Source: Escherichia phage L14. From it: a DNA stretch of 64,000 bases. Positions 1 to 64,000 of this stretch are shown piece by piece. The stretch lies in the sequence record OQ992558.1. One strand, given 5' to 3'. Position 1 is the stretch's first letter. The number at the start of each line of letters is the position of its first letter. The notes below the pieces were generated by a model. The model did no database searches. It was not told the origin of the DNA and worked only from the letters and a program-made list of their open reading frames with translations. The position numbers were made by a program, and so were the translations under genes.

Positions 1-25
1 ATTCCAAAAATCTTATTAATTATAT

Positions 26-223
26 TCATACTAATTCCTTTAATCCGTAGATAGGAGATAATTCATCGCCCATACGAAGGTCTTCATTTCCATCTACCCA
101 AGAAACAATATAAGCCTCTTTTATTTGAATACCACTCCATTTAAACGAAGGTAGAACCTTAGAAATTAATCCAGGTATATCAACTCCCTTTAATTCAACG
201 GTTTGATCTAAAAAGAATTTCAT
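26..223 (-). CDS. hypothetical protein (65 aa)
   Basis: ORF in tightly packed minus-strand early block; no motif recognised. Confidence 0.35.
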   Translation of the reverse strand: MKFFLDQTVELKGVDIPGLISKVLPSFKWSGIQIKEAYIVSWVDGNEDLRMGDELSPIYGLKELV

Positions 224-510
224 TAGAACCTCATCTGAAAACCATGCGATTTAACATTACCTCCACCAATATCAGAAATATTAATTTCGCGCGCAATTGA
301 AGGGTCAATGTCAATTTCACGATTGAGTTTAGTGATAGCTAAAGTATCGCGCCCATTTACAGTACGAAACTCTAAAGGACAAACCACATCAACGTAGTTT
401 TTAATCGATTCGCTAGTAGGCTGCAAATGTGCAGGAAGGTCTTTAGGCGCCTTTGAGAAAACTACTTCGCAGAAGTTTTTACGAGTATCAAAATAAGTGG
501 TCATAAACAT
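223..510 (-). CDS. hypothetical protein (95 aa)
   Basis: ORF preceded by GAGG Shine-Dalgarno; stop/start packing with neighbours. Confidence 0.45.
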   Translation of the reverse strand: MFMTTYFDTRKNFCEVVFSKAPKDLPAHLQPTSESIKNYVDVVCPLEFRTVNGRDTLAITKLNREIDIDPSIAREINISDIGGGNVKSHGFQMRF

Positions 511-525
511 AATATTTTCCTCAGT

Positions 526-541
526 AAGGGGCCGAAGCCCC
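526..541 (-). promoter_or_regulatory. intergenic stem-loop; GGGGC-UUCG-GCCCC on the minus-strand transcript
   Basis: Inverted repeat aggggc cgaa gcccct read directly; lies between two minus-strand ORFs just upstream of an RBS. Confidence 0.5.
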
Positions 542-549
542 TTTTTATT

Positions 550-915
550 TTAAATATCAAATTCGTTAAGAACTACATCAAAGATTGCTTCAAGATGCTC
601 AGGTTTAGCTCTATTACTCAGAATATGACGAATCCAAGTTTTAACCAGAAGCTTACGATTAACACCATTCCAGCAAGGATGAGTCCCTAAATCACGTTGA
701 CGAAAATCATCATCTAATGCGATTTTAAAAGAAGAACCTTCTTTCGTGATTGAAACTGTAATACCGTTTTCAAATCGCATATAAACGTAATTAGGAGTCA
801 TATACTGTTCAATTTCGCATACTGATCCATTTTGATGTTTCCAAAGGCAGATAGTATCAATAGAACCTGCAATACCATTAGAAACATATTTACGCTCAAA
901 GTTGATGTAGTTCAT
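550..915 (-). CDS. hypothetical protein (121 aa)
   Basis: ORF in early block. Confidence 0.45.
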   Translation of the reverse strand: MNYINFERKYVSNGIAGSIDTICLWKHQNGSVCEIEQYMTPNYVYMRFENGITVSITKEGSSFKIALDDDFRQRDLGTHPCWNGVNRKLLVKTWIRHILSNRAKPEHLEAIFDVVLNEFDI

Positions 916-983
916 TTTTATTCTCCGAGATGTTTAATTGCGGTACAGGTATATAATATCATATCCTGTACCAAAGTAAACAA

Positions 984-1316
984 TTATTTTACTACTTTCC
1001 AGTGTTGCATGTCAAGTTTACCGACTTTTTTCATCTTCTCAATTAAGCGTTCGGCACGTTGGCGAGCTGTAACATAATGCCATTCGCCTAATTCATTTTG
1101 TTCAATTTTTCCAACGATTACTGTATTCAATTCATAAATCCAACCAGTAAAGAAATTATGAACTTGAATTGTAAAGGTGAAATCTGTTCCCATACCTTCT
1201 GTTGTTTCTACTTCAATAATATCACCTTCAACTGCCATTAAGAACCACATAGTTTCATCATATTTACCATTGAAGCATTTAGTTTTAACTGCAGCGTTCA
1301 GATTAATCGTTTTCAT
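984..1316 (-). CDS. hypothetical protein (110 aa)
   Basis: ORF in early block. Confidence 0.45.
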   Translation of the reverse strand: MKTINLNAAVKTKCFNGKYDETMWFLMAVEGDIIEVETTEGMGTDFTFTIQVHNFFTGWIYELNTVIVGKIEQNELGEWHYVTARQRAERLIEKMKKVGKLDMQHWKVVK

Positions 1317-2637: not shown

Positions 2638-2946
2638 TTATTTACCAATAAATTGGAGTAAATGCTCAACTTTCATACCATTAACGGAAATCAATTTGTC
2701 AATAGAAAAACCTCGCCATGCACCAAGCTCAACATCAAATACTGGAATCATGTCAGTAGATTCTTTCCGAGTAGATTCAGTCAATTTGTCAGTTTGTATG
2801 GTTGGCATAAAGTCTGCATCACGAGTACCTTTCATGGTACGAATAGTACCATCAGACTTTTCAAAAACTACGTTTGAAATACCCATGGACAATTTAGTTT
2901 TCAAAATTTCACGAATTGCTACTTTTTGTTCAGTCGTCAGTTTCAT
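2638..2946 (-). CDS. hypothetical protein (102 aa), 31.1-like position
   Basis: ORF between 31 and cd. Confidence 0.45.
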   Translation of the reverse strand: MKLTTEQKVAIREILKTKLSMGISNVVFEKSDGTIRTMKGTRDADFMPTIQTDKLTESTRKESTDMIPVFDVELGAWRGFSIDKLISVNGMKVEHLLQFIGK

Positions 2947-3183
2947 TTATTTACCTATTACAGTTTTAATATGAGTTGTTCCACGTTCTTTAAGAGTGGA
3001 AAGTAATTTTTGGCATTTTTCTAAATCAGATTTCCAACTATGTGGTCTATCAATACAAACCCAGTTTGACTTATAATACTGCTTCCATTTAGAGAAAAAA
3101 TACTTCTTATACTCTACAGCAAATGAAATGTTCTCGTTGGAATAAGAACTAATTGCTGTGAGTTGTACCAAACGAAATTTCAT
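2947..3183 (-). CDS. hypothetical protein (78 aa), 31.2-like position
   Basis: ORF abutting cd. Confidence 0.45.
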   Translation of the reverse strand: MKFRLVQLTAISSYSNENISFAVEYKKYFFSKWKQYYKSNWVCIDRPHSWKSDLEKCQKLLSTLKERGTTHIKTVIGK

Positions 3184-3764
3184 TATTCACCACAGAATTC
3201 GTTGATATTTTCCCAGTTTAACTTATTCAAGTTTTTCTTAGGAACATTAAACACTTCAATACCTGCATTTCGCAGAATATCATCCCAGCCAGGTTTATTT
3301 TTATCGTATGTTTCACAATAAACCAGCTTTTTAATTCCAGATTGAGCTATTGCTTTTGCACAATCTGGGCAAGGAGAAAGTGTTACATACATAGTAGCAC
3401 CTTCAATTGAAGAACCGTTTCGTGCAGCAAACAAAATAGCATTTAGTTCAGCATGAATTTCATTTTTAGACGACCATTCAGAGTGCGCGCTACGATGTTC
3501 TTTCGCCAATACAAAACGATCAGTTGAACCAAACGATACACATTCAGGCTTATGACCTTGAATGATAGTATGTTTAGGCTTATTCAGCAACCAACCTTGC
3601 TCAGCAGCATAATCACAGCAGTTCACACCACCTGCAGGTGAACCATTATATCCAGTAGAAATAATACGTCCATTCTTTTCAATTACTGCTCCTACTTTCC
3701 AGGAGCAACATTTTGATTCTTGTGATACTAAATATGCAATTTGAAGTACTGTACTCGCTTTCAT
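3183..3764 (-). CDS. cd: dCMP deaminase (193 aa)
   Basis: Zinc-dependent deaminase motifs HAE...PCxxC (HAELNAI...SPCPDCAKA) visible; length equals T4 Cd. Confidence 0.9.
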   Translation of the reverse strand: MKASTVLQIAYLVSQESKCCSWKVGAVIEKNGRIISTGYNGSPAGGVNCCDYAAEQGWLLNKPKHTIIQGHKPECVSFGSTDRFVLAKEHRSAHSEWSSKNEIHAELNAILFAARNGSSIEGATMYVTLSPCPDCAKAIAQSGIKKLVYCETYDKNKPGWDDILRNAGIEVFNVPKKNLNKLNWENINEFCGE

Positions 3765-4099
3765 TTCATAATCACCAGATAAGCAGATTTAGCAGTTTCA
3801 ACACGATAAATTTCGTGACGAAGTTTAGTTATACTTTTAATAACAGAACTAATTATATTCTGCCCATCTTTAAAGCGGTTTTTCTTATCAATAAAAATTG
3901 CGCCAACCATCTTTTTGTGAAGCTCAACCGGATACTTCGTCACAATAATAGCATCATACACAGAAGGATGAATACTATTCACCAGAGTATCATTCATTAA
4001 AGTTATTCTAATGAACTTTGCTGTTTCAGAGTCAAGCGCTCTATGATCGCCAGTATCATTTTCAAGACAATTATCAATTATATCAGTTAAATTCATCAT
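3761..4099 (-). CDS. hypothetical protein (112 aa)
   Basis: ORF in cd-pseT interval (cd.x-like). Confidence 0.45.
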   Translation of the reverse strand: MMNLTDIIDNCLENDTGDHRALDSETAKFIRITLMNDTLVNSIHPSVYDAIIVTKYPVELHKKMVGAIFIDKKNRFKDGQNIISSVIKSITKLRHEIYRVETAKSAYLVIMK

Positions 4100-4332
4100 A
4101 GTACGCCATACACCCTTTGTGCTTCAACTAATCCATCAAAATCCAATTTGAGATGTGTTATTTGGTCACCATCACCTGGATTCACAATTACTAATACTGA
4201 ACGAGGAGTTTCGGTAATAACACGAACCGATGTTTCGGGAAATCGTTCAGAAACCTTATTTACTAATTCCTGCGCAAATAGTTTAACTTTTTCTTGGAAT
4301 TCTTTAACAGTAATTGGTTTTTCACTTAGCAT
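4096..4332 (-). CDS. hypothetical protein (78 aa)
   Basis: ORF in cd-pseT interval; start overlaps upstream stop. Confidence 0.45.
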   Translation of the reverse strand: MLSEKPITVKEFQEKVKLFAQELVNKVSERFPETSVRVITETPRSVLVIVNPGDGDQITHLKLDFDGLVEAQRVYGVL

Positions 4333-4853
4333 GTTGATCCCAGCTCCTTACTTTCAACGTTTTTAACTAATTTGACAGAAACTAATTCAGCATCTTGGGT
4401 AATCATTACCGGGCCTTCTTCATACTCTTCAAGATATTCTAGAGCTTTCTTTTTAGCTTCTTCCTTTGTATCAGTTTGAGCATAGATATAAAACATGCAA
4501 CCAGTAATACCTACTACTTTCCACTTAATTTCTTTATCAGTTTTAATTTCAAATTTACTGGCAGAATCATCTTTTTGAACTTCTTCGAAAAAAGAATATT
4601 CTAACATATAAGCAATTGAAAATAACGGGCTAACTTTATAGGATTCACCCATTACATCAACAGCTTTATACCAACAATCATCAATTTCGCGTTTAATGCT
4701 AATAACATTCTTTGCAGGGTCAATTTTTACTTTAAATGAATTTTCCCCAATAAACTGGGCGATTCGTTTATTAGCCCCGCAAGTTTCATTAAAAATATCT
4801 TTATACCCAGTTTTAAAGCGATAAACCTTATCTTCTTCAAACCATTCGCTCAT
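4326..4853 (-). CDS. hypothetical protein (175 aa)
   Basis: ORF in cd-pseT interval. Confidence 0.45.
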   Translation of the reverse strand: MSEWFEEDKVYRFKTGYKDIFNETCGANKRIAQFIGENSFKVKIDPAKNVISIKREIDDCWYKAVDVMGESYKVSPLFSIAYMLEYSFFEEVQKDDSASKFEIKTDKEIKWKVVGITGCMFYIYAQTDTKEEAKKKALEYLEEYEEGPVMITQDAELVSVKLVKNVESKELGSTC

Positions 4854-5255: not shown

Positions 5256-6456
<1,201 letters not shown>

Positions 6457-7891: not shown

Positions 7892-9479
<1,588 letters not shown>

Positions 9480-9487
9480 AATAAAAT

Positions 9488-9501
9488 GGGCCTTGCGGCC
9501 C
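9488..9501 (-). promoter_or_regulatory. intergenic stem-loop (GGGCC-GCAA-GGCCC) between nrdB and denA
   Basis: 5-bp GC stem read directly. Confidence 0.4.
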
Positions 9502-9506
9502 ACTCC

Positions 9507-10685
9507 TTAAAAGTATTTTTTAAAACTCATCATAACTTTATCATCAACATCATTATCAATCTGTGCAACAAGATAAGATGACAGTTCTACTTCTTGTGGC
9601 GCTGATTGAACATTATCAGAATTAAGATATTCACGAATCCAAGGATATGGATGTTTAACCGGAGCATCGGTAATTGGGCATGGAAGACCGCACTGTTTCA
9701 TACGAGATACAGTTAAGTAATCAATAAAGCTCCACATGCTATTTGTATTTAATCCAGGAACATCGCCATCTTTAAATAAATGAACTGCCCAATCTTTTTC
9801 TTGACGGTTAACTTCCATGAAAATATCAACTGCTTCTTGTTCACACTCTTGAGCAATTTTAACCCATTGATCGCCATCAGTACCAGATTGAAGTTGACGA
9901 ATAATATATTGTGTACCTTTAAGATGAAGCTGCTCATCACGTGCAATGAACTTCATAATCTTGGCATTACCTTCCATGATTTCCATGTTTTTATGGAAGT
10001 TAAAGGTACACGCAAAGGATACATAAAAACGAATAGCTTCTAATGCATTAATAACGTGCAAACAGAGGTAAAGAGATTTCATTAGCTCACGCTTCCAATA
10101 TGTCTCATGCTCAATAGCATCTTCAATAACGTCTTCGTCTGCATTAATTTCTTTTTGGTATTCGATATCAGCTTTAGCGTTTTCCCAATAACGAGTTTTA
10201 ATCAGAACATCATCATAATAACGTCCAATGGATTCAGCACGTTTCATAATAGCTTCATCTAATACAATTTCATCAAATACCTTCGATGGATCAGTATAAA
10301 GATTTCGCATGATATGAGTATATGAACGACTGTGAATAGTTTCACTAAAAGTCCATGTAGCAACCCATGTATCAAGGCTTGGGTCTGAAATTAATGACAT
10401 AAGTACAGCAGATGGCGCGCGACCCTGAATGCTATCTAAAAGTGATTGATACTTCAAGTTGTTAGTAAAAATATTTTGCTGATACTGAGGAAGCTTATTA
10501 AACTGTGCAGCATCCATCATCAAGTTTACTTCTTCAGGACGCCAGAAAAATGATAATTGCTTTTCGGTTAAATCTTCAAAAACTTTATGACGTTGAATAT
10601 CATAACGCGCAATACCAAGACCTGAACCAAAAAACATAGGTTCTTTTAAAACATCAACTGGATTTGTATTAAAAACTGTGCTCAT
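9507..10685 (-). CDS. nrdB: ribonucleotide reductase small subunit (392 aa), uninterrupted
   Basis: Di-iron/tyrosyl-radical R2 family by sequence recall; single continuous ORF (no intron). Confidence 0.9.
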   Translation of the reverse strand: MSTVFNTNPVDVLKEPMFFGSGLGIARYDIQRHKVFEDLTEKQLSFFWRPEEVNLMMDAAQFNKLPQYQQNIFTNNLKYQSLLDSIQGRAPSAVLMSLISDPSLDTWVATWTFSETIHSRSYTHIMRNLYTDPSKVFDEIVLDEAIMKRAESIGRYYDDVLIKTRYWENAKADIEYQKEINADEDVIEDAIEHETYWKRELMKSLYLCLHVINALEAIRFYVSFACTFNFHKNMEIMEGNAKIMKFIARDEQLHLKGTQYIIRQLQSGTDGDQWVKIAQECEQEAVDIFMEVNRQEKDWAVHLFKDGDVPGLNTNSMWSFIDYLTVSRMKQCGLPCPITDAPVKHPYPWIREYLNSDNVQSAPQEVELSSYLVAQIDNDVDDKVMMSFKKYF

Positions 10686-10736
10686 AAATTTTCCGCTTAG
10701 TTAATAGTTGGTGACTCGTCCGTGAGTCAAATTATA

Positions 10737-13001
10737 TCATAATTTACAGGATGAACAATCTTCAGCTTTTGGAGTTTCTATTTCATAATCATCAGTACCA
10801 GAACCATCGCGTGTATTATGATAATAGAAATTTTTAATGCCATAATACCATCCGTATAGCATGTCATCAATCATTATTGACATTGGAACCTTTCCTTTTG
10901 GAAAAATCTGCGGATCATAATATGTATTCGCTGAAGCTGATTGACATACCCATTTCAGCATAATAGCTACCTGCGTAAGATAAGGTTTATTACCTTTCTT
11001 GGCTAATTTCCATGTATAATCATAGAGGTCTATGTTATGCTCAATATTCGGAACAACTTGATTAAATGAACCATCTTTTGATTCTTTAACACTTACCGGT
11101 CCGCGTGGAGGCTCGATGCCGTTTGTACTGTTAGATACCTGACTGGACGATTCACAAGGCATAAGTGCTGATAATGTGCTATTACGGATGCCAAAGAGCT
11201 TAAGGTCTTCCCGCAGCGCCGACCAGTCACAAACGTATTTTGGAGCTGCGATTTGGTCAATCTTTTTATTGTACCAGTCGATAGGTAATTCGCCTCGAGA
11301 CCAACGAGTGTCTGAATAATATTCGCAAGGTCCTTTTTCTTTGGCGAGCTTAATGGATGCTTTAATGAGTCCATACTGTAATCTCTCAAATAATTCATGT
11401 GTTAAATCGTTAGCATCTTCATAAGAAGCAAAGTTACTTGCCAGCCAAGCTGCATAGTTGGTAACACCTACACCAAGGTTACGGCGCTTTTTAGCTTTTT
11501 CTGCTTCAGGAACTGGATATCCTTGGTAATCCAACAGATTATCAAGAGCACGAACTTGAACTTCTGCCAATTCATTAATTTTATCTTGGTCTTGCCAGTC
11601 AAAATTATCTAGTACGAATGCAGAGAGAGTACACAATCCAATTTCAGCATCAGGACTATTCACATCATTTGTTGGAATAGCAATTTCACAGCACAAGTTA
11701 CTCTGACGAATAGGCGCCTTTTCACGAATAAACGGAGTATAGTTATTCGTATTATCAATGAACTGCACATAAATCCTTGCGGTTCCTGAACGTTCAGTCA
11801 TGAGCAATTCAAATAGTTCACGGGCTTTAATACGCTTTTTACGAATATTAGGGTCTTTTTCTGCTGCTTCGTATAATTCACGGAAACGGTCTTGGTCTTT
11901 AAAATAAGAATAATAAAGCTCGCCACCCATTTCATGCGGACTGAACAAAGTAATGTAATCATTCTTTCCGAATCGTTCCATCATCAAATCATTCAGTTGA
12001 ACACCATAATCCATATGACGAATGCGGTTTTCTTCTACGCCTTTGTTATTTTTCAAAACAAGAAGATTTTCAACTTCCAAATGCCAAATAGGATAATAAG
12101 CAGTAGCAGCGCCGCCACGAATTCCACCCTGTGAGCATGATTTAACAGCAGTCTGAAAATGTTTCCAAAAAGGAATAACACCAGTATGGCGTACTTCACC
12201 CATGCCAATCTTAGAACCTTCAGCACGAATCATACCAACGTTAATACCAATTCCAGCGCGTTTAGAGATATATTCAACAATTGAAGCAGAAGCCTTATTG
12301 ATAGACTTCAGTGAATCGCCTGCCTCAATAACAACACATGAACTAAACTGCCGAGTTGGAGTACGGCAACCAGCCATAATAGGAGTTGGTAATGAAATCT
12401 GTCGAGTAGATACCGCTTCATAAAAACGGATAACATGTTTTAATCTATCAACAGGTTCATCTTGATGCAATGCCATTCCAATAGTCATAAATGCAAACTG
12501 TGGAGTTTCATAAATTTGACCAGTGGTTTTATCTTTAACTAGATATTTTTCTTTTAATTGCATCGCCCCGGAATAAGTAAATTCCATATCCCGCTCGTGC
12601 TTAATTTTTGATTCTAAAAATGTAATTTCTTCTGCTGAATATTTTGACAATAATTCAGGGTCATATTTACCTTCATTTACACAGTAAGAAATATGGTCAA
12701 TAAATGAACGTGGTTCATACTGCCCATAAACATGCTTACGAAGAGCGAACATTAAACAACGTGCAGCTACATATTGATAATCAGGCTCTTCAACCGAAAT
12801 AGAATTCGCAGCGGCCTTAATGACAATAGTCTGAATATCATCAGTTGTCATTCCATCACGGAGATAAGATTTAATATTTTCATATAATTCATAAGGATCT
12901 ACTGATGTTCCTTCAGCTGCCCAAGATAAAACTTTAATAATTTTTTGCGGGTCAAAGCTCTGAGAAACACCACTACTTTTGATAACATTAATTAATTGCA
13001 T
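10737..13001 (-). CDS. nrdA: ribonucleotide reductase large subunit (754 aa)
   Basis: Class Ia RNR alpha; C-terminal CSSCKL-type tail; length equals T4 NrdA. Confidence 0.92.
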   Translation of the reverse strand: MQLINVIKSSGVSQSFDPQKIIKVLSWAAEGTSVDPYELYENIKSYLRDGMTTDDIQTIVIKAAANSISVEEPDYQYVAARCLMFALRKHVYGQYEPRSFIDHISYCVNEGKYDPELLSKYSAEEITFLESKIKHERDMEFTYSGAMQLKEKYLVKDKTTGQIYETPQFAFMTIGMALHQDEPVDRLKHVIRFYEAVSTRQISLPTPIMAGCRTPTRQFSSCVVIEAGDSLKSINKASASIVEYISKRAGIGINVGMIRAEGSKIGMGEVRHTGVIPFWKHFQTAVKSCSQGGIRGGAATAYYPIWHLEVENLLVLKNNKGVEENRIRHMDYGVQLNDLMMERFGKNDYITLFSPHEMGGELYYSYFKDQDRFRELYEAAEKDPNIRKKRIKARELFELLMTERSGTARIYVQFIDNTNNYTPFIREKAPIRQSNLCCEIAIPTNDVNSPDAEIGLCTLSAFVLDNFDWQDQDKINELAEVQVRALDNLLDYQGYPVPEAEKAKKRRNLGVGVTNYAAWLASNFASYEDANDLTHELFERLQYGLIKASIKLAKEKGPCEYYSDTRWSRGELPIDWYNKKIDQIAAPKYVCDWSALREDLKLFGIRNSTLSALMPCESSSQVSNSTNGIEPPRGPVSVKESKDGSFNQVVPNIEHNIDLYDYTWKLAKKGNKPYLTQVAIMLKWVCQSASANTYYDPQIFPKGKVPMSIMIDDMLYGWYYGIKNFYYHNTRDGSGTDDYEIETPKAEDCSSCKL

Positions 13002-13318
13002 AAGTCCTCAACTTGAAAATCGTCTTTAAACAATCGGTTAACTATATGAGCTATTATATCACCATGACACGGCTTTGGTTTACATGTGCATCCTAGCCTC
13101 ATTCCACGTAAAGGCTCTAAATGTGCTTTAGTTATTTCTCCGGATTTAATTCGACGTATAAAATCTTTTTTGAATAATTCAATGGCAGCCTCCCGGCTGC
13201 CAGCATCTTTACCGACGTAATTTCCCCAAAATGTACCACGGTGAATATTAACATCAAAGTCGGATTTATATTTATTCACTACCTGGCATAGACGGCCCGC
13301 GCGGTGATAATTCGTCAT
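12992..13318 (-). CDS. hypothetical protein (108 aa) with C-x-C-x4-CHGD motif (DUF4326-like)
   Basis: Motif [12 protein letters not shown] in translation; family assignment is from recall. Confidence 0.45.
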
Positions 13319-13535
13319 ATTGTTTTTCCGTTAAAACAGTAATATCATAGTAACAATCAGAAGAAGTTTTAACTGTAGAAATTTTATTATCAAAATACTC
13401 ACGAGTCATTTTATGAGTATAATATTTTTTGCCATAAATGATAATAGGCTGATTTGGTCCTGGAACTTCTAACTCACTTGGGTTAGGAAGTGTAAAAAGA
13501 ACTACACCAGAAGTATCTTTAAATCGTAAAATCAT
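13272..13535 (-). CDS. hypothetical protein (87 aa)
   Basis: ORF downstream of td; overlaps next ORF by 47 nt in another frame. Confidence 0.4.
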
Positions 13536-13558
13536 AAATCCTCACAATTAAATTAAAA

Positions 13559-13870
13559 TTACACCGCCATTTTTCCTTTCAAGACGCCGTGGGACTGATA
13601 ATCTTTGAGAACGAAATCTTTAGGCCTGAGTTTAAGAATGTATTCCAATTGTTCTTTAGTAGAAAGATAGCGGAATTTATAAGGCAATCCGCCTATTACC
13701 AGTTCACAAAGCTCTTTAGGTTCACGACGCAAAATTTCTTTACATTGTTCTACGTGATTCATATAGATATGAGTATTACCACCGGAAAATATCAAATCTC
13801 CCGGAATAAGATTACACATCTTAGCTACAATATGAACTAACGTAGCATATGATGCAATATTAAATGGAAG
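13559..13870 (-). CDS. td: thymidylate synthase, exon 2 (103 aa + stop)
   Basis: Begins CTT CCA TTT (LPFNIASY...) directly after intron 3' terminal G; in frame with exon 1. Confidence 0.9.
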   Translation of the reverse strand, partial: LPFNIASYATLVHIVAKMCNLIPGDLIFSGGNTHIYMNHVEQCKEILRREPKELCELVIGGLPYKFRYLSTKEQLEYILKLRPKDFVLKDYQSHGVLKGKMAV

Positions 13871-14190
13871 CATTATGTTCAGATAAGGTCGTTAATCTTA
13901 CCCCGGAATTATATCCAGCTGCATGTCACCATGCAGATCAGACTATATCTTCAACTTGTTAAAGCAAGTTGTCTATCGTTTCGAGTCACTTGACCCTACT
14001 CCCCAAAGGGATAGTCGTTAGGCATTTATGTAGAACCAATTCCATTTATCAGATTTTACACGGTAAGTAACTAATCCTGATGAAATTATTAAAGGGTAGT
14101 CCTACAATTTAGCACGGGATTGTCTACTAGAGAGGTCCCCCGTTTAGATAGATTACAAGTATAAGTCACCTTATACCTAGGCCTCAATTA
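13871..14190 (-). other. group I self-splicing intron in td, 320 nt, no internal ORF
   Basis: 5' end UAAUUGAGGCCUAGGUAUAAGGUG..., 3' end ...UAACGACCUUAUCUGAACAUAAUG match recalled T4 td intron ends; exon 1 ends in U, intron ends in G. Confidence 0.85.
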
Positions 14191-14739
14191 ACCCAAGAAA
14201 ACATCTACACTGCGTTGATACCATTGTAAATCAAGATAACCATTACGCACATTAAACTGATAGAACATATGACAAGGTGGTAATGCCATATATTTAAGTT
14301 CAGCTGGATTCCACGCAGAAACAATTTGACGCCTATCACTTGGTAGTTTTTTAATACGATCAATAACTTCTATAATTTGGTCTACACCGCCAAAATCGCG
14401 CCACTGTTTTCCATAAATTGGGCCAAGTTCACCACTATGGTATCCTAAATCTTTTGCCTGATTTTCGTAATTTTCATCCCAAACTGTTTTGCCTTGGATT
14501 AACGAATCATGCTGAATTAATCGTAAATCATTGACATTTGTGCTTCCTGATAAAAACCAAAGTAGCTCAGCAATGCAAGCTTTCCAGGCGAGCTTCTTAG
14601 TTGTTACCGCAGGAAAACCTTTAGTTAAATCCCAGCGTAATTTAGTACCGAATAAAGCAATTGTTCCTGTGCCTGTTCGGTCATCGGTTTCATAGCCATT
14701 TTCAAAAATGTCTTTAATTAAATCTTGGTATTGTTTCAT
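14191..14739 (-). CDS. td: thymidylate synthase, exon 1 (183 aa)
   Basis: TS active-site region ...LPPCHMFYQF...; ORF hits stop UAA exactly at intron 5' end. Confidence 0.9.
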
Positions 14740-14784
14740 TTAGTACCTTATATAAATTATAATACATTTTATGAAGCTAAATAA

Positions 14785-15132
14785 TCAATACGGTTTAGCA
14801 TCAAATTTTCTCTCAATTTCAGGTGTGAAATATAATTCTTTACCACGTTTGGAAAAGCGACCAATAATATGATAATTATTCTCATCAAACGTGATATTAC
14901 CAATATCCATAGCTTTCAACCAAATATCGATATTTCTATCCAGCTTTATGTCAAAATTCCAATACGGAGAACTATTACCGAAAATACTGCAAGCGGATTC
15001 AGTGAAACAACTGCTATAAATCTTGTCTTTAGGAACTACTAATTGATAGACACCTTTAATAAACTGAGGACCCTGCCACTTTGGCTGTTTCGTGTCTTTT
15101 TCTAATAGAATAGGGTAATAATTAAAATTCAT
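14785..15132 (-). CDS. hypothetical protein (115 aa) inserted between frd and td
   Basis: Clean ORF filling a ~410-bp gap where T4 frd and td directly overlap (recalled). Confidence 0.5.
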   Translation of the reverse strand: MNFNYYPILLEKDTKQPKWQGPQFIKGVYQLVVPKDKIYSSCFTESACSIFGNSSPYWNFDIKLDRNIDIWLKAMDIGNITFDENNYHIIGRFSKRGKELYFTPEIERKFDAKPY

Positions 15133-15151
15133 ATTTCCGCCACGCGTTATT

Positions 15152-15978
<827 letters not shown>

Positions 15979-15989
15979 ATTGCCTCCTA

Positions 15990-16322: not shown

Positions 16323-16332
16323 ATTATTTTCC

Positions 16333-18406: not shown

Positions 18407-18475
18407 TTTTATTTCCTTTTTTAATTTAATTAACAGTTGGTGCTATGACGATGTATGACCTCATAGCTGGTCAGT
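18407..18475 (-). promoter_or_regulatory. gene 32 translational operator: pseudoknot plus AU-rich UUAAAUUAA repeats
   Basis: Minus-strand leader CAGCUAUGAGGUCAUACAUCGUCAUAGCAC then UUAAUUAAAUUAAAAAAGGAAAUAAAAAUG, as recalled for T4 gp32 autoregulation. Confidence 0.6.
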
Positions 18476-18506
18476 GAGATAATTATAATCTATTTATAAT
18501 AAGCAA

Positions 18507-42233: not shown

Positions 42234-42263
42234 ATTATACCACATCCTTGTGGTAAAGTAAAC
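42234..42263 (-). promoter_or_regulatory. T4-early-type promoter (GTTTAC / TATAAT)
   Basis: plus gtaaac 42258-42263, attata 42234-42239. Confidence 0.45.
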
Positions 42264-44083
42264 TACTGGCTCATCCATTCTTTACGAAGGTCAGCATTAT
42301 CTCCCATGAGCATTTCAAAAAGCTCTTTCCAGTTCTCAGGAAGTTTAACAACATCATATACTGGATTTTGAATCATCTCACGATATTCAGATTTTTCCAA
42401 AGAGCCAAGTCCTTTAATATAACGGATGCTATGTTTAGGTAGAGCATCTTTAGCACTCTCATATTCAGCGACTGTATAAAACCATTCTTGTTTTTTACCG
42501 ACCTGAGCGATGATTACAGGAGTTTTGACAAAACGAATTCTTCCTTGCTCAAACAGTTCTGGCCAATTACTAAAAAACCCGAGCAGAGAAGGATAAATGC
42601 TTCCTAGACCATCATGGTCAGCATCAGTCATAATAGCAATATTATGATAATTCAAGTTTTCAGCTTTTTCACCGAGAACTAATCCAGTGATTGCGCAAAT
42701 ATCAAACAATTCTTTGTTTTTAAGCATATCAGCATATGACATACCCCAACTGTTGAGAACTTTACCGCGCAATGGATAACCACCATGAAGTTCTTTATCA
42801 CGAACATCAATAAGATATCCGATAGCAGAATCACCCTCAGTCAAGAAAAGAGTAGTGTCAGCATCTTTACCGCAAAGATTCGCTTTAATGTGTTTATGAA
42901 CCTTAGCTTTAGAAGCCTTTTTAGCTGCTTTAGTTTCTGCTGCCTTTTCTGCCGCCAATTTACGAGCCAAAGCAGCTTCAATAATTGGCATTAAAATTGC
43001 TTCATTGTTTAAAATAGCACGTGAAATCTTTTTAGCATCAAGCTGAATATGACTACGAATTTCACCAAATGGAGAAGTCAAACGCTCTTTAGTTTGAGAA
43101 TCAAATCGCATGTTTTTCATATCACGAACAAACATAACGATAGTCAAACATTCTTTAACACGTGCTTTAGTTACATCAATTTTGAACTTACGTTTGATTT
43201 GTGGAATAAGGTCTTCACAAATATCATCCATAACACAGTCAATGTGATGGCCACCATTCTTAGTGTGAATGTTATTGACGTATGTTAATTGACGAAAACC
43301 ATCCGGTGAACGACCAACCGCAATAGAACAATTTTCTTGTTCTTGAACAATAGCATGCTCATCATATTGGCGTGCATATTTCTTAAAATTGCCCTGAACC
43401 TTTTTACCATTAAAGGTAAATTGAATATCAGGATAAACTACTGCAAGTGTCTGGAGACGATCTAGTGTAATGTCAAGATAAACTTGGGACAGCTCATTAG
43501 TTTCAAATGACATAAAATCAGGAATGAAAGTAACACGAGTTCCTTTCCATTTTCCAGGAATAGTTTCCCATGATTTATTTTCCATGCCATTTGAACAACG
43601 AACTACAATATTATTTTGACCATCACCAGTTTCACCGACAAACATCACAGAAAAAATGTTTGTCAAACTAGAACCAACACCATTCATACCGCCAGTGACG
43701 CGTTCTTTATCATCACCGAAGTTACCACCTGCTTTTGGAATAGTCCATGCAGCAACAGGACCAGGAATTTCTTCACCGGTAGGTGTTTTAACCATCGCCT
43801 GCGGAATACCACGACCGTTATCTTCAACTGTTACTTGATTGTTTTTAATAGTAACATTAATTTTATTTGCGAATTTAAACTTAGTACGAATACCTTCATC
43901 TACTGAGTTATCGATAATTTCATCAATAAGCTTAACAAGACCAGGTACATACTGAACACTTTCCCATTTACCAAACAGAAAGCGCTCATGCATTTCATTA
44001 GCAGAAGAGCCAATATACATGCCGCTACGCTTTTTGATATGTTCAATATCACTCAGAATTTTAATTTCATTCTTAATCATCAC
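42263..44083 (-). CDS. 39: topoisomerase II large (ATPase) subunit, unsplit 606-aa form
   Basis: GyrB-like ATPase and TOPRIM regions in one continuous ORF. Confidence 0.9.
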   Translation of the reverse strand: MMIKNEIKILSDIEHIKKRSGMYIGSSANEMHERFLFGKWESVQYVPGLVKLIDEIIDNSVDEGIRTKFKFANKINVTIKNNQVTVEDNGRGIPQAMVKTPTGEEIPGPVAAWTIPKAGGNFGDDKERVTGGMNGVGSSLTNIFSVMFVGETGDGQNNIVVRCSNGMENKSWETIPGKWKGTRVTFIPDFMSFETNELSQVYLDITLDRLQTLAVVYPDIQFTFNGKKVQGNFKKYARQYDEHAIVQEQENCSIAVGRSPDGFRQLTYVNNIHTKNGGHHIDCVMDDICEDLIPQIKRKFKIDVTKARVKECLTIVMFVRDMKNMRFDSQTKERLTSPFGEIRSHIQLDAKKISRAILNNEAILMPIIEAALARKLAAEKAAETKAAKKASKAKVHKHIKANLCGKDADTTLFLTEGDSAIGYLIDVRDKELHGGYPLRGKVLNSWGMSYADMLKNKELFDICAITGLVLGEKAENLNYHNIAIMTDADHDGLGSIYPSLLGFFSNWPELFEQGRIRFVKTPVIIAQVGKKQEWFYTVAEYESAKDALPKHSIRYIKGLGSLEKSEYREMIQNPVYDVVKLPENWKELFEMLMGDNADLRKEWMSQ

Positions 44084-48862: not shown

Positions 48863-48868
48863 ATATCC

Positions 48869-52657: not shown

Positions 52658-52840
52658 TTATTTTGCCCAAGGAGCCCAAGGCGGAGGGTCAAGATGGTAT
52701 GAAGCTAGTTCTTCTAGAAGAGCATCTGGGGCTTCAATTCCATAATTCTGTAATACTATACGGTACTCTTTCTTATAATCACTAGAATCATTCTGGATAT
52801 TCGTAGAATGATTATCTTCTAACATCTCAAATAAATCCAT
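52658..52840 (-). CDS. hypothetical protein (60 aa)
   Basis: ORF in modB-soc interval. Confidence 0.4.
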   Translation of the reverse strand: MDLFEMLEDNHSTNIQNDSSDYKKEYRIVLQNYGIEAPDALLEELASYHLDPPPWAPWAK

Positions 52841-52848
52841 ACTAATTC

Positions 52849-53319
52849 CTAGCGATAAAAACCAAATTGACGATTAGCTTCAATAATCTTTCTTTCTTCT
52901 TCGGACATTCTCCAGCGTAGTCCAACATCAAAATGAGCCCAGACCATCTTAACAAATGCATTTATATCTTTAATATCTTCAATAATGAATGATTTACTTT
53001 TAGAAGGTTGACTCGCTAATTTAACTTTATCGTCTTCAAACAGGTCAAAAAGACCATATTCATGGGCTCTTTTATAGCCTTTAATAGTTAAAGCTTCAGA
53101 AGAAGAAAAAGGTGAATCAGTATTCTGCAAAATATCTTCAGTATGCTTTATAATTAGAATAACATTTTCTGGATATTTTCTTTCTTTTATATCTTTAATT
53201 AAAAAATCCGGATTTTCTGCTAAAGGAATAATTAATGAGCATTTTTTACCAAGAGTATTTACTGATTTACCTTCTTTAGACATGAATTCTACTGAATAAT
53301 GTTTTGCTACTTCAATCAT
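52849..53319 (-). CDS. hypothetical protein (156 aa)
   Basis: ORF in modB-soc interval. Confidence 0.45.
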
Positions 53320-53472
53320 GTGATTTCCTTTTGCCTACTAATGGACCATCGGGAATTTTGTTTTCCTGGATATATTTCTCATTTTCTTCCATCATTTTAC
53401 TACCGATTTTAAGAAGCAAATCCATTGCTTCATTTGCTTTAGCTTTAGCCTCTTCTAATATCATATCTCTGT

Positions 53473-53676
53473 TCACGATTTATCCCCATAGATGTCTCTC
53501 ATTAATTTAAGCGCTGAGCGTTCTAATTTCTTTTCTTTCTCAGCACTAATCATTGATTTCATCCATTCTTCCGATTCGTTCTGCATTTCTTTATTTGCTT
53601 GTTCAACCCAACCATCATCAATATACATCGAGTTTGGTCTATTGAACCATTCAAGCATCTTCTTCAGAGCTTTCAT
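53473..53676 (-). CDS. hypothetical protein (67 aa)
   Basis: ORF in modB-soc interval. Confidence 0.4.
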
Positions 53677-54148
53677 TTGTTTTACCTAAAACAACAGTAG
53701 GAGCATCATCAAATTCATGAATTTTGAGCAAATTTGGATGTAAACTATTCCATACAGAAGAAATAAAGTATGATAAAGCATCTTCACTCGCAATTATAAA
53801 TTTATTTCCTTTATCTATTTTCCAACTATATACTGAATCGTACGAATAAAAAGATAAAGGTTTATTATTATATTGTTCTGCGCTAACATTAATGTATTCT
53901 GATTTAGTAAATGCTTCAATTGCTCTAAACGGAATATTTGGTACAGTTTCAATAATACCAATCTTTTTAAGTTTTATTTCAGCATCTTCTGGAACTGGCA
54001 TTGAAACGAAATTTTCTACGAGATACATTGGGTCACAATAACCCTTATCAATCATTACTGCTACGGTAATTGGAACGTCTTTAGCAAACGACATACTATT
54101 ACTGCTAATATACATTTCAAACAAAATCGCTTCCATAATTTTCCTCAA
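53651..54148 (-). CDS. hypothetical protein (165 aa)
   Basis: ORF in modB-soc interval. Confidence 0.45.
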
Positions 54149-54486
54149 TCACAAGATGTAGATGAACAACTAGAATCACAAGAACTTCCACATGAATCGC
54201 CTTCCCATACATGAACAGGAACATTAGTATCATATGAATCAGAACTAGACTGTGTATTCTGCGTATTAGATGATGTAGTAGGTGTTGACCAGCGCCAAGG
54301 ATTTTTATAATATTCTTGGGCTTCTTCATAAGTCATAGTAACTGCTTCTACTGTTCCATCTCCCATATAAACATACTCAACTACAGTTAAAGGAAGGTAG
54401 TCATTTGAAATAGGAACTACACCTTCTCCGGGAGTTGTAGAGAAAAAATCCGTAAAGAAACTTTTAAACCAATTAAAGATAAACAT
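54145..54486 (-). CDS. hypothetical protein (113 aa) with Ser/Thr-rich linker and C-terminal Cys repeats
   Basis: C-terminus [18 protein letters not shown] read in translation. Confidence 0.45.
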
Positions 54487-54692
54487 TACAAAAAGCCTCT
54501 TTTGAATTCAACTTGCTTCTCGCCATAATCATATCGAATCTCTGCATTAAATTCAACAGAACCATCTGCGTACATCATAAATGAATGCACAACAACTTCT
54601 GTAGACCATGGCTGTAGTTCATATTTCTTCATTACATGCCGTGAAATGATAATATCTAAATCTTCATTTGGTTTAATCCAGCGATTTAACAT
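54486..54692 (-). CDS. hypothetical protein (68 aa)
   Basis: ORF, ATGA-type overlap. Confidence 0.4.
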   Translation of the reverse strand: MLNRWIKPNEDLDIIISRHVMKKYELQPWSTEVVVHSFMMYADGSVEFNAEIRYDYGEKQVEFKRGFL

Positions 54693-55027: not shown

Positions 55028-55058
55028 AATAAACTCCTTTATTGTTTAATTACAGGTG

Positions 55059-55066
55059 TATTTATA
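55059..55066 (-). promoter_or_regulatory. T4 late promoter box TATAAATA for soc
   Basis: plus tatttata = minus TATAAATA, ~31 nt upstream of soc ATG. Confidence 0.6.
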
Positions 55067-55240
55067 TCAGTCTTCAATGAAAACTTGTGCCAGGAATTCG
55101 TGTTCATCTTGAATTTGTTTATATAAAGCCATTACAGCATTTATATTAGATCTATCTACTTTAAGTTGATAGGCATACCACTCGTATAAATTAATTAAAG
55201 CTTTTTGTCGTCTAATAAATTCTTCTTTGGATATTTTCAT
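55067..55240 (-). CDS. hypothetical protein (57 aa)
   Basis: Hand-translated; ATGA overlap with upstream ORF; below ORF-track cut-off. Confidence 0.4.
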   Translation of the reverse strand: MKISKEEFIRRQKALINLYEWYAYQLKVDRSNINAVMALYKQIQDEHEFLAQVFIED

Positions 55241-55437
55241 TTTGAATGCTCTATAATTAATTTTAAGGCTTCTTTACTGACAAAAATTTCATCAAGACCT
55301 TCTTCTACACCCCAATCAACTACACGAAGCTGATTAGATAAGAGCTCGTATGTGAGCTCCTTGTCATAATTTTTAAATAGCTGGTCAATACGTTTCTTGT
55401 GGGCTTTCTTAAGCTGGCGTTTATTTAAACGAGCCAT
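55237..55437 (-). CDS. hypothetical protein (66 aa)
   Basis: ORF between 56 and soc. Confidence 0.45.
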   Translation of the reverse strand: MARLNKRQLKKAHKKRIDQLFKNYDKELTYELLSNQLRVVDWGVEEGLDEIFVSKEALKLIIEHSK

Positions 55438-55955
55438 TAATAACCTCGGTCTTGACGAGCGAAGTTTTCAGCATTTTTCAGATAATAAAGTTTAAAGATT
55501 TCTTCAGCCGTAAGACCGAGGCCTTGGAACATGTTCAGAACGAAATGAAGAATATCAATCATTTCGAATTTAATTTCCAACTGGTCTTGTGGAGACAAAT
55601 CAGTAATCAGAGTTTCACGTCGTTCACCATGTTGAGCTTTCCAAGGCTTCCATACAGCAGATGCATCTTTTTCACCATTGCTCATACCACCAAGAGAAGT
55701 CAATAGTTCGCGGAATTCATCATCAATATAATCTTTCTGATTACGCAGCCAATCAACAACTTCACCCGCAGTAGCCAAATCATCAGGATGACGGTTATAT
55801 TCAGGTTTATCTTTAGCTAAACGAACCTGCAGAGATTTCTGCATATCAAGCATAACTTGCAACGGGTCTTTTTCATCACCGAGAATATCCCAGTATTCAT
55901 TTTGAGCTTTATCAGCGCCTTCAATCAGTTGTGAACATTCATTAAAGTATGCCAT
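55437..55955 (-). CDS. 56: dCTP pyrophosphatase, MazG-like (172 aa; start at MAYFNE)
   Basis: Start matches recalled T4 gp56 N-terminus; ORF-track N-terminal extension is hydrophobic and likely spurious. Confidence 0.8.
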   Translation of the reverse strand: MAYFNECSQLIEGADKAQNEYWDILGDEKDPLQVMLDMQKSLQVRLAKDKPEYNRHPDDLATAGEVVDWLRNQKDYIDDEFRELLTSLGGMSNGEKDASAVWKPWKAQHGERRETLITDLSPQDQLEIKFEMIDILHFVLNMFQGLGLTAEEIFKLYYLKNAENFARQDRGY

Positions 55956-56026
55956 TATTTTTCCTTTCAATTCATGGGTTAGTAGATTAATTATACAATA
56001 AATATATAAAGCAATAAGGAGGACAT

Positions 56027-56227
56027 ATGGTACAAAAATTAATGGCACTTGTTAATGCCATCAAAGGTAATAAAAAGCGTATAGCTTTTACTATTTCTGC
56101 TATGGTAGGAATTTTACTCTGGAACTTTATTTTATCACCAATTGCAATTGCGCATGGTGTTAATATTCCAGTAGTTACTCTTGATACATTCGTAGATCTA
56201 GCATTTGCTTTAGTTGGGTTAATTTAA
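56027..56227 (+). CDS. small membrane protein (66 aa) on plus strand
   Basis: Strong RBS AAGGAGG 7 nt upstream of ATG; two hydrophobic segments; divergent from gene 56. Confidence 0.45.
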   Translation: MVQKLMALVNAIKGNKKRIAFTISAMVGILLWNFILSPIAIAHGVNIPVVTLDTFVDLAFALVGLI

Positions 56228-57420: not shown

Positions 57421-57777
57421 TTAACCTCTATTCATAAAAGCATTAAAAATTTGGTCATCAATCGATGGAATAGTAACTTTTTCTGCATCATTTAGCAAAT
57501 CATTAATTTCATCAGATAGCATAACGCATGTACCTTTATTTCCTGTAATTGCTACTGCACAATTACGAACGTTTTCTTTATCAAATTTTAGGTTAATATT
57601 TTCGTAGTGAAAATCCTTTAATGCCGAATATATTTTTAAAATGAAATTGTCTTTTACTACAATAAACCCAACCTCACTATTAAAACGTGGTTCATGGAAA
57701 CTGTAATAAACCTTTTCATCTATAAAATCGTATGAAATTTTTTCCATTTTTAAATATGAAAATTCAGAACTATACAT
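57421..57777 (-). CDS. hypothetical protein (118 aa)
   Basis: ORF in 41-61 interval. Confidence 0.45.
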   Translation of the reverse strand: MYSSEFSYLKMEKISYDFIDEKVYYSFHEPRFNSEVGFIVVKDNFILKIYSALKDFHYENINLKFDKENVRNCAVAITGNKGTCVMLSDEINDLLNDAEKVTIPSIDDQIFNAFMNRG

Positions 57778-57789
57778 ACTAACCTCTAA

Positions 57790-61599: not shown

Positions 61600-61676
61600 T
61601 CATTTTTTCCATAGGCATCATTATATTTTCCTCACTGGTTAAAGATAGAGTAATTATAACACGATAAATTTAGGCA

Positions 61677-62525
61677 TTAATCAACTGCTATTGGATGAAT
61701 AGCATTAAACTTATGAAATGCTTCTGATTTTTCTTTACGTGAAACGCACATGCGAAGAACCTTTAATGGCTCGTCTTCTTCACCCAACGATTTTCGTTTT
61801 TCAATATTCGACGTTTTCCAACGAGCTTGCTCTGGAAACTCTCTATTGATTTGCTCAAGCGCTCTATTATGTTTAGAATTACTACGAATTGAACTACACC
61901 CACCAGGAGCTTGCGCTTTTCCAGATACAACCAGATATTTGAACAAGGCCAAATGCGGATAACCTTGATTAATTAAATTGAGAAATGCATACATATCTTC
62001 GCACAAATCAATTTTTCCATACCCAATTTGTTCTGTCGTAAGTTTTCCGAGGTCATACCATGTATTCGTGAATCCATATGAATTTTCACGATAATTACCC
62101 CAAGATGAAGTAATTTTAAAAATTGGTAGACGAGCATGGCCATGATAATACCCGCAATCCATGGCATCCTCAACATATTGAATCAATTCATAGAACTGTT
62201 CACGAGTCAATTGATTGACTTTATCTACACAACGACGGTCATCTCTTTTTCGCATTGAACTCATACGAATAGTAGTATCATCGTCAATCATCCAGATTCG
62301 TTGACCTGCATACATATCAGTAATTGCTTTACGAGTACCGGCAATTCCGTTTACATCATCAGGAATAGTTATAATTTTAGCTCTAGACCCATAGGCATCA
62401 TAATAAGCTTTTTCTTCATGTTCACGCACTATAATATGCGGTTCATAATCAGTCGGAAACATATCAAGGGCAGAAACTGCCCCTACACGCTGATAACTTG
62501 GAATTACGAATTGAATCATTTCCAC
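61677..62525 (-). CDS. glycosyltransferase with DXD motif (282 aa); candidate HMC-glucosyl transferase
   Basis: IWMIDDDTTIR DXD motif; occupies the uvsX-42 slot where T4 has the 351-aa beta-gt. Confidence 0.6.
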   Translation of the reverse strand: MEMIQFVIPSYQRVGAVSALDMFPTDYEPHIIVREHEEKAYYDAYGSRAKIITIPDDVNGIAGTRKAITDMYAGQRIWMIDDDTTIRMSSMRKRDDRRCVDKVNQLTREQFYELIQYVEDAMDCGYYHGHARLPIFKITSSWGNYRENSYGFTNTWYDLGKLTTEQIGYGKIDLCEDMYAFLNLINQGYPHLALFKYLVVSGKAQAPGGCSSIRSNSKHNRALEQINREFPEQARWKTSNIEKRKSLGEEDEPLKVLRMCVSRKEKSEAFHKFNAIHPIAVD

Positions 62526-63256
62526 TCACCATTATAATCTTTTTTCACAATATGAGTTTCGCCAGTATTCCACCAATGATCAACCAAGTAAAAATGACGA
62601 GAATATACATGAAGACTTCCAACATTCCATATAATAGAACCTGCTTTATATTGACGAGTTGAATCGCCTGCATTCAAATCAGATACTAATTTATCTAATA
62701 CGTATTTTTGCCATGCATAATCATTACGGAATCCGAAGACCACATCATTTGAGCGCATGTTAACAACCGCATTGATTTTCTTGTCACGAATCAGGTATTG
62801 TACTGTATTTGTACACATGAAATCTGACATGCCATCTTTATTGTAGTCAAACTGCATAGATGGACGAGTATAAATCATGATACCACGTCGAGAATCAGGA
62901 TTTTGACCAAGTTCAGCTAAACACATGTCATATTGAGCATAGTTATCTTCTGACCAGATAGCCCAACCATAATTCGAGTTAATTTCACCTTTAGAAGATG
63001 CTACTTGTTGCCAAATCTTCGGTGTTTCACCCGGAATATCTTTAACGAACAAGCTTTTAGATTTATACCATTCAAGTTCACGCTGAATGTATTCATCATT
63101 AAGAGCGCCAAAAATAAACGGTTCATCTGCTACAAATGATGCGCCAATAATTTCAATAGTTTTAACACCAGTTTTATCAACTACGAAATCTTTTTCTTTT
63201 AATGCAAGTCCCAAATGAAGACGGATTTCTTCAACTGTCATAGAGTCACTAATCAT
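62516..63256 (-). CDS. 42: dCMP hydroxymethylase (246 aa)
   Basis: TS-fold enzyme; matches recalled T4 gp42 length and position. Confidence 0.9.
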   Translation of the reverse strand: MISDSMTVEEIRLHLGLALKEKDFVVDKTGVKTIEIIGASFVADEPFIFGALNDEYIQRELEWYKSKSLFVKDIPGETPKIWQQVASSKGEINSNYGWAIWSEDNYAQYDMCLAELGQNPDSRRGIMIYTRPSMQFDYNKDGMSDFMCTNTVQYLIRDKKINAVVNMRSNDVVFGFRNDYAWQKYVLDKLVSDLNAGDSTRQYKAGSIIWNVGSLHVYSRHFYLVDHWWNTGETHIVKKDYNGEWK

Positions 63257-63409
63257 TTAAACCTCAATTGATACATTCATATTTAACTTGTAACAGTAAT
63301 AAACCCCAACCTAAAATAATAGTTGGAATCATAAGAGGAACCGTTACACTGTAGTATATACTTATTATAATCATCAAGATTAAAAGCAATGCTGCTATAA
63401 TTTTGCTTT

Positions 63410-63661
63410 TCATTCCTTCTCTCTGATGATAATTACCTGATTTGGCTGCGCAAACTTTTTAGTTTCACCTGCAATTGACCAAATAAATGTAATAAACCAA
63501 CCAATAATTGACCAGTTAAACAGTAAAGACGTGAAAAAGATTCCTACTGTCGATTTTGACCCACGCATCAAGGCGATAAACCATGGAAGCATGTATATAA
63601 TAATAGCCAACACGCCTGAAACTAAAACCATAAAAATTGAACCTGCTACTAAAGTTTCCAT
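63410..63661 (-). CDS. imm: Imm superinfection immunity membrane protein (83 aa)
   Basis: Two TM helices; size and position as T4 imm. Confidence 0.75.
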   Translation of the reverse strand: METLVAGSIFMVLVSGVLAIIIYMLPWFIALMRGSKSTVGIFFTSLLFNWSIIGWFITFIWSIAGETKKFAQPNQVIIIREKE

Positions 63662-63668
63662 GTTTTCC

Positions 63669-63884
63669 TCACTTAGTCAAATTTTTTACGCATGAATTAT
63701 AAGAATTCACTACATACTCCATCGGAGCATTTTTACCAGTACGCCATTGGTAATTATTAGCCCAATTAGCCCAAATTTCGGCGCAGTAGTTTTCAATTTT
63801 TTCTTCGCGTGTAATTACATCAGAATTACGATATGCTTGAGCAGATTCATCTGGACGAATAGCTTCGTCAAAATTCGCCTGCAT
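63669..63884 (-). CDS. hypothetical protein (at least 71 aa)
   Basis: Reading frame stays open upstream of the ATG to the window edge (64000), so the protein may be longer. Confidence 0.4.
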   Translation of the reverse strand: MQANFDEAIRPDESAQAYRNSDVITREEKIENYCAEIWANWANNYQWRTGKNAPMEYVVNSYNSCVKNLTK

Positions 63885-64000
63885 TTGTTCGACTGTTTGC
63901 TTTGGAGCTTCTTTATAACACTTGACATTAGGATTATAAAATTTGCTTGAACAGTTTACAATTTTTCCTACATCAGACTGATTTACTACCGGTCCTTGAG

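Follow-up and report, generated by a model that had tools for sequence, protein, structure and literature searches.

A T2-like segment of Escherichia phage L14 with empty homing endonuclease sites and a td intron lacking an intact endonuclease gene

Results

The seven T4 homing endonuclease loci are missing from the L14 window

A 64-kb stretch of Escherichia phage L14 (positions 1 to 64,000 of our extract from record OQ992558.1, hereafter the window) was analyzed for homing endonuclease genes (HEGs) and introns. The window is a Tequatrovirus segment that follows T4 (NC_000866) along one colinear path in blastn comparisons, running from 128.9 kb of the T4 genome across the rIIB/rIIA origin (168.9/0 kb) to 27.0 kb, with the early genes on the minus strand and genes 34 to t on the plus strand (20773-30976). 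Each 25-kb end of the window is 95-98% identical to hundreds of T4-like phages of Escherichia, Shigella and Yersinia, with 478 records covering at least 80% of one end and 421 covering at least 80% of the other; identity to many Tequatrovirus genomes is 96-97%. According to the T4 annotation, this span of T4 holds seven HEG loci, namely I-TevI in the td intron, I-TevIII in the nrdB intron, mobE, segG, mobA with gene 60/60.1, segF and segA, and the same inventory is listed in Table 1 of PMC2988022. An initial annotation of the window, which proposed that it lacks HEGs, named five of these loci and left out segG and segA. Reading the blastn alignment together with the T4 annotation revealed that all seven are missing from the window. 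The td gene nevertheless contains a group I intron, in which only a remnant of the I-TevI gene is found (Table 1).

Table 1. Features of the window at and around the T4 homing endonuclease loci.
Feature	Position	Strand	Evidence and comparison
ORF-less group I intron in td, 320 nt	13871..14190	-	Rfam RF00028 and T4 alignment
td exon 1, 183 codons	14191..14739	-	Pfam Thymidylat_synt 1-176; length as T4 exon 1
td exon 2, 103 codons and stop	13559..13870	-	Pfam Thymidylat_synt 176-266
I-TevI remnant, last 22 codons and stop	14018..14086	-	tblastn match of I-TevI aa 224-245 at 14086-14021, 100% identity, E 1.9e-9
denA (endonuclease II), sole GIY-YIG protein, not a homing endonuclease	9069..9503 or 9072-9506	-	99.3% identity to T4 DenA; Pfam GIY-YIG, 23.2 bits
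Intron-less nrdB	9507..10685	-	Single 392-aa ORF, same length as T2 nrdB; T4 138458-139055 absent
Empty nrdA-nrdB intergenic site, 51 bp	10686..10736	.	T4 nrdB.1 and mobE (139719-140420) without counterpart; colinear with T2
Empty gene 32/gene 59 intergenic site, 100 bp	18407..18506	.	T4 segG stretch 147918-148542 absent
Undivided gene 39 (topoisomerase II large subunit, 606 aa)	42263..44083	-	T4 2793-3911 absent; without gene 60 bypass, 60.1 and mobA cassette
soc/gene 56 interval without segF	55028..55436	-	T4 15610-16307 (segF) replaced by two small ORFs (57 and 66 aa)
uvsX/gene 42 interval without segA	61600..62525	-	T4 23555-25497 replaced; colinear with T2
Eleven short insertions/replacements relative to T4	4332-4850, 6158-6454, 14742-15147, 15753-16311, 33751-34073, 37474-37700, 38357-38565, 44411-44785, 46455-46900, 48639-48869, 57465-57789		Small ORF (57-180 aa) in each
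ORF, open reading frame.

Comparison with other T-even genomes, which had been suggested as a check on the absence of HEGs, showed that T2 (AP018813) shares this HEG-free layout throughout. T2 and the window stay colinear at each of the T4 HEG sites, and the blastn blocks between the two are unbroken across nrdB-nrdA, 32-59, 39 and uvsX-42, giving the window the HEG-poor architecture of T2; a tblastn search of the same span of T2 found no T4-type HEG. Alleles of the T2 type are found at nrdB 5', uvsX and gene 39. The insertion site of the T4 nrdB intron maps between window positions 10022 and 10021, and the first 200 nt of nrdB, which include the MobE nicking region placed at the start of this gene (PMC2790892), match T2 at 30 of 36 polymorphic sites. 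Gene 39, in which HATPase_c, DNA_gyraseB and TOPRIM_C are all recognized by Pfam within one open reading frame (ORF), is 96.2% identical to its T2 counterpart, and uvsX is 97.9% identical to T2 versus 86.4% to T4. Between uvsX and gene 42, a T2/T6-type beta-glucosyl-HMC-alpha-glucosyltransferase (61677-62525; 282 aa; phrog_842, E 7e-89; Pfam TAGT) stands in place of T4 segA and beta-gt. The two small ORFs between soc and gene 56 match phrog_9053 and phrog_5782, neither of which is a HEG family; the corresponding T2 interval also contains two small ORFs, the 3' one of which aligns to the window, whereas the 5' one (window 55067-55240) does not.

Several observations concern the surroundings of these sites. 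The glucosyltransferase at 61677-62525 implies T2/T6-style DNA glucosylation. Gene 56 (dCTPase; 55437-55955), the target of SegF, shows 73-76% nucleotide identity to both T2 and T4, compared to about 95% for the flanking DNA, a divergence that could affect SegF sensitivity. T4 encodes the DNA adenine methyltransferase Dam between genes 56 and 61, and tblastn with both T4 and T2 Dam found no dam anywhere in the window; in the interval between these two genes (55956-56223) only a small plus-strand ORF (56027-56227) is left, as in T2.

The td intron retains the ribozyme and the 3' end of I-TevI

The intron in td, which the initial annotation overlooked along with the I-TevI remnant, belongs to the only Rfam family found in the window (RF00028; 13919-14200, minus strand). 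The match scored 70.3 bits against a gathering threshold of 50 (E 8e-16) and covered positions 1-253 of the 253-position model. The intron occupies the canonical insertion site and its boundaries are those of T4 (TTGGGT/TAATTGAGG ... CATAATG/CT, with slashes marking the exon-intron junctions), such that the spliced td sequence is an intact frame of 861 nt (286 aa), as in T2 and T4. About 8% of exon positions are not the same as in T4. Because td function is needed and the ribozyme core is intact, we predict that the shortened intron is competent to splice.

The T4 td intron measures 1017 nt in the reference record versus 320 nt here, leaving about 697 nt missing. Relative to T4, the deletion begins inside the I-TevI late-promoter region (...CCCTTTAATAA) and the sequence resumes at I-TevI codon 224 (TTTCATCAGG...), so that the late promoter/operator, the ribosome-binding site and I-TevI codons 1 to about 223 have been removed. 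In T4, the deleted stretch is flanked by the short imperfect direct repeats TTTAATAAAT and TTTAAAAT, which would fit a deletion between such repeats. The remaining I-TevI sequence shows three nucleotide differences from T4, all of them synonymous. The Rfam alignment places this remnant in the P6a loop and running into the core, where it falls within a 71-nt insertion and the 3' strand of P6. That it reaches into P6 agrees with the published role of the 3' end of the I-TevI ORF, which contributes essential structure to the intron core (PMC2988022). No intact intron-encoded endonuclease ORF is present in the td intron, the start codon, the GIY-YIG domain, the zinc finger and most of the DNA-binding domain all having been deleted, so the intron cannot promote its own homing.

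Searches for other homing endonucleases in the window

Sixteen T4 HEGs and HEG remnants, with denA and gp49 as controls, were compared by tblastn to all six frames of the window at E values up to 10. Two matches were real, one to denA (99%) and the other to the C-terminal 22 residues of I-TevI (100%). The HMM search of six-frame ORFs that the initial annotation had recommended was performed with Pfam on concatenated stop-to-stop ORFs of at least 30 aa on the coding strand and at least 45 aa on the opposite strand. The GIY-YIG domain of denA was the sole homing-type nuclease domain found, so that denA stands as the only GIY-YIG protein of the window, in agreement with what had been proposed.

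Positive controls revealed a limit to the domain search. Pfam-A was silent (E<=0.01) on T4 SegF, SegG and the truncated I-TevIII and scored the mob proteins at no more than about 20 bits, and its use as the sole test for HEGs was therefore dropped. Because Pfam misses these genuine T4 HEGs, PHROGs and direct tblastn were added. PHROGs was tested on a control set consisting of mobE, segF and segG, with the truncated I-TevIII left out, and it recognized all three as homing endonucleases with E values from 1e-23 to 1e-133. It was then applied to all 17 window-specific ORFs and to every six-frame ORF of at least 25 aa that overlaps DNA without a T4 alignment; the gp36-gp38 tail-fibre block (26007-30295) stood outside this run and was covered by Pfam only. 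No HEG family was matched in the ORFs and DNA that PHROGs covered, and the matches that were obtained were to families of unknown function, MotB-like proteins, dCTPase and the beta-glucosyl-HMC-alpha-glucosyltransferase. Thus Pfam on the ORFs, PHROGs on the non-T4 DNA and tblastn found no HNH or LAGLIDADG protein and no member of the seg or mob families in the window. More broadly, outside denA these searches found no ORF with a HEG catalytic domain of the GIY-YIG, HNH, LAGLIDADG, His-Cys, PD-(D/E)XK, EDxHD or Endo VII-like type. Together with the colinearity with T4 and T2, these searches uphold the proposal that the 64 kb are free of HEGs.

A similar caution applies to introns. At the gathering score Rfam reports the ORF-less intron of the window but yields no match for the ORF-bearing td and nrdB introns of T4 itself (region 9900-17200 of the extracted T4 record), so that silence of Rfam is no proof that such introns are absent. 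Absence of the nrdB intron from the window therefore follows from the colinearity with T2 and the intact 392-aa ORF rather than from Rfam. Automated Rfam intron scans are accordingly biased toward ORF-less introns.

Distribution of the td allele and of HEGs among relatives

The prevalence of each element was estimated by megablast in a collection of 50,697 phage records, taking as the comparison base the approximately 420-480 records that share the span. The td intron was found in 249 records, segG in 142, the nrdB intron in 118, segF in 50, the mobA/60.1 cassette in 41, segA in 26 and full-length mobE in 21. Set against 420-480 records, every free-standing element is a minority allele. The description of this region as normally rich in endonucleases is thus true of T4 but not of its relatives, in keeping with the published view that T4 is an outlier in HEG load. 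Multiplying the absence frequencies of the individual elements gives a rough estimate, with the sites taken as independent and the denominators approximate, that chance alone would leave all seven sites unoccupied in about one genome in five.

A 141-bp probe across the td deletion junction matched 16 phage records end-to-end with 98.6-100% identity, revealing an identical ORF-less junction in phages that include HP3, U115, MLP2, Pinarejo, Elenatom, SYGD1, ESh30 and PYps55T. Six further records with the td intron contain a different partial deletion, and in about 227 the two halves of the probe lie far apart, as expected of an intact ORF. Among the carriers of the junction, HP3 matches positions 1-29977 of the window at 92-98% identity and has the same ORF-less td intron; it differs in that a 624-bp insertion with segG, whose protein is 99.5% identical to T4 SegG, occupies precisely the 32/59 site left empty in the window. 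Elenatom, with the same td junction, likewise differs from the window in carrying segG. In HP3 (922-2102 of the extracted stretch) and Pinarejo (923-2102), td is annotated as two coding sequences, both named thymidylate synthase, and the intron is unannotated; in one record of this td allele, spurious small ORFs are also placed within the intron.

Window-specific small ORFs and the tail-fibre tip

The small ORFs in the eleven stretches that are inserted or replaced relative to T4 fall into PHROG families 3710, 2364, 1928, 3183/3566, 10955, 2390, 2237, 622, 2333, 4967 and 4122. These insertions are mostly common to T2 and none encodes a recognizable nuclease. Two places singled out by the initial annotation as possible hiding places for a HEG, 38276-38593 and 52658-54692, do not contain one: ORF 38276-38605 is assigned to DUF7418/phrog_2237, and 52658-54692 contains homologues of T4 modA.2 to mrh.2 (T4_MRH, DUF7206). 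Paralogy among the goF/frd.2-like window-specific ORFs was also considered and was rejected, the only match being of a motB-like C-terminus. The tip of the tail fibre (26488-30287) is not T4-type: the 994-aa gp37 has a Peptidase_S74 intramolecular-chaperone domain at its end, and the 264-aa gp38 is a T2-type adhesin (Pfam GP38).

Discussion

Our results argue strongly that this segment of L14 belongs to a T2-like Tequatrovirus with the common unoccupied alleles at the T4 HEG sites and a td intron that has lost its I-TevI gene, an explanation that we consider very probable. HEGs of T-even phages are polymorphic for presence or absence and spread through cleavage and repair when phages co-infect, with T4 unusually loaded, and no special cause is needed for L14 to hold the unoccupied allele at the mobE, segG, mobA/gene 60, segF and segA sites as well as at the nrdB intron site. 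At td there would have been one former invasion, in which a T4-type mobile group I intron became fixed, and a later deletion of about 697 nt between imperfect direct repeats in the P6a loop would have removed the I-TevI gene. The remaining 320-nt ribozyme would still have to splice for thymidylate synthase to be produced. Such an intron, lacking an ORF, could not home alone, yet it would split the I-TevI target and thereby render td immune to I-TevI from co-infecting phages. The HEG-free state of the window is real, but it is ordinary and already understood.

Several points weigh against this explanation or limit its reach. Splicing of the shortened td intron is a prediction from sequence. ORFs shorter than 30 aa on the coding strand or 45 aa on the opposite strand in T4-homologous DNA were covered by tblastn alone, and the window is part of a genome that may contain HEGs elsewhere. 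Finally, several window-specific ORFs of 57-180 aa with unassigned functions lie at indel sites, making a wholly new endonuclease family formally possible.

The last point leads to the proposal that HEGs are present but unrecognizable, with a window-specific ORF encoding a free-standing endonuclease of an undescribed family that perhaps takes part in collaborative homing with the ORF-less intron. The best placed candidate would be the 115-aa ORF (14785-15132) that adjoins td on its upstream side, between frd and td. It is inserted relative to T4 at a site that is a hot spot for HEGs, has only three clusters of homologues and belongs to no Pfam family. Domain libraries are imperfect for this class of protein, as the failure of Pfam on bona fide SegF and SegG demonstrates, and there are documented cases in which ORF-less introns home collaboratively with a free-standing HEG next to them (PMC2790892, PMC10448857). 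However, PHROGs, which performs well on seg and mob genes, places the window-specific ORFs in non-HEG families of unknown function, no catalytic motif was matched, and most of the candidates are shorter than known free-standing HEGs. The 115-aa ORF has no sequence match in the PDB, and its AlphaFold2 model is poor (pLDDT 59.5), with a best Foldseek match to the PDB at E 0.99 and no nuclease-like fold. Moreover, the same ORF lies next to the intron-less td of T2 and is therefore not linked to the intron. We rejected it as a hidden endonuclease and regard the proposal as a whole as very improbable.

It is highly improbable that the lineage actively excludes or resists HEGs through resistant target sites or an anti-HEG function, a possibility that the initial annotation had also raised and for which we found no support. 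All seven T4 sites are indeed empty, td is shielded by an intron without a nuclease, and gene 56, the SegF target, diverges from T2 and T4 well beyond its flanks. Yet HP3 and Elenatom, which share the td haplotype and are 95-98% identical nearby, carry a T4-identical segG at the site that is empty in the window, indicating that HEGs do enter this lineage, and by chance roughly one genome in five would be fully empty, on the rough assumption of independent sites. The nrdB 5', uvsX and gene 39 alleles are also T2-type, and experiments show T2 to be susceptible to those T4 endonucleases that have been studied (PMC2988022, PMC2790892), although cleavage of gene 39 by MobA is given in these sources as a personal communication only. 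With such alleles, the window is probably as susceptible as T2 to the T4 endonucleases.

Engineered deletions of the td intron ORF exist in the T4 literature, but it is scarcely credible that misassembly or a laboratory deletion construct underlies the HEG-free state or the short intron, given that 16 natural isolates from E. coli, Shigella and Yersinia hosts, each sequenced independently, have this very junction, that the td exons are about 8% different from T4, and that all of the empty sites match T2 base-for-base in architecture.

Returning to the explanation of a T2-like phage with unoccupied sites and a degenerate td intron, it is possible, if on the doubtful side, that the ORF-less td intron is more than mere decay and has been selectively favoured as an allele that is immune but harmless. 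Such an allele would block I-TevI cleavage while being free of an endonuclease gene whose translation can interfere with splicing, which could explain the occurrence of one junction in at least 16 mosaic genomes. If true, the ORF-less td intron would show the phage homing cycle caught naturally at its degeneration stage.

Beyond housekeeping, these results have little significance, although they confirm that the HEG load of T4 is atypical of the genus. The suggestion that the window could serve as a naive background for homing studies is fair for the sites of free-standing HEGs, but it does not extend to td, whose I-TevI homing site is filled and interrupted by the intron. Though sound, the idea goes back decades, T2 being the classical HEG-less recipient in T4 x T2 marker-exclusion crosses (PMC2988022, PMC2790892). 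A T2-like phage such as L14 would be a ready recipient for work on homing and marker exclusion at nrdB, 32, 39 and uvsX, but not at td. For annotation, surveys of phage HEGs that use Pfam only will undercount, having missed SegF and SegG here, and the ORF-less td intron currently goes unannotated in public records, in which td is split into two genes.

Comparison with known systems

Across the span, T2 resembles the window in having an intron-less nrdB that directly abuts nrdA, in lacking segG, segF and segA, in its undivided gene 39, in the 115-aa ORF between frd and td, and in its T2-type gp38 adhesin and beta-alpha-glucosyltransferase. The two differ at td, which is without any intron in T2 and contains the ORF-less intron in the window. 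They differ also around gene 56, which is only 73% identical between them and which in T2 is separated from gene 61 by dam and a 181-aa ORF, neither of which is present in the window.

The td intron itself is closest to that of T4, with which it shares the insertion site, the splice boundaries and the protein sequence of the final 22 I-TevI codons, and the two ribozyme cores are nearly identical. Its fate resembles that of the T4 nrdB intron with its defunct I-TevIII, in which the endonuclease was likewise inactivated by deletion and the ribozyme kept (PMC2988022, PMC2790892). The T4 nrdB intron, however, retains a 97-aa fragment of its ORF and is mobilized in trans by the neighbouring mobE, whereas the td intron of the window has lost almost the whole ORF and has no recognizable endonuclease gene nearby.

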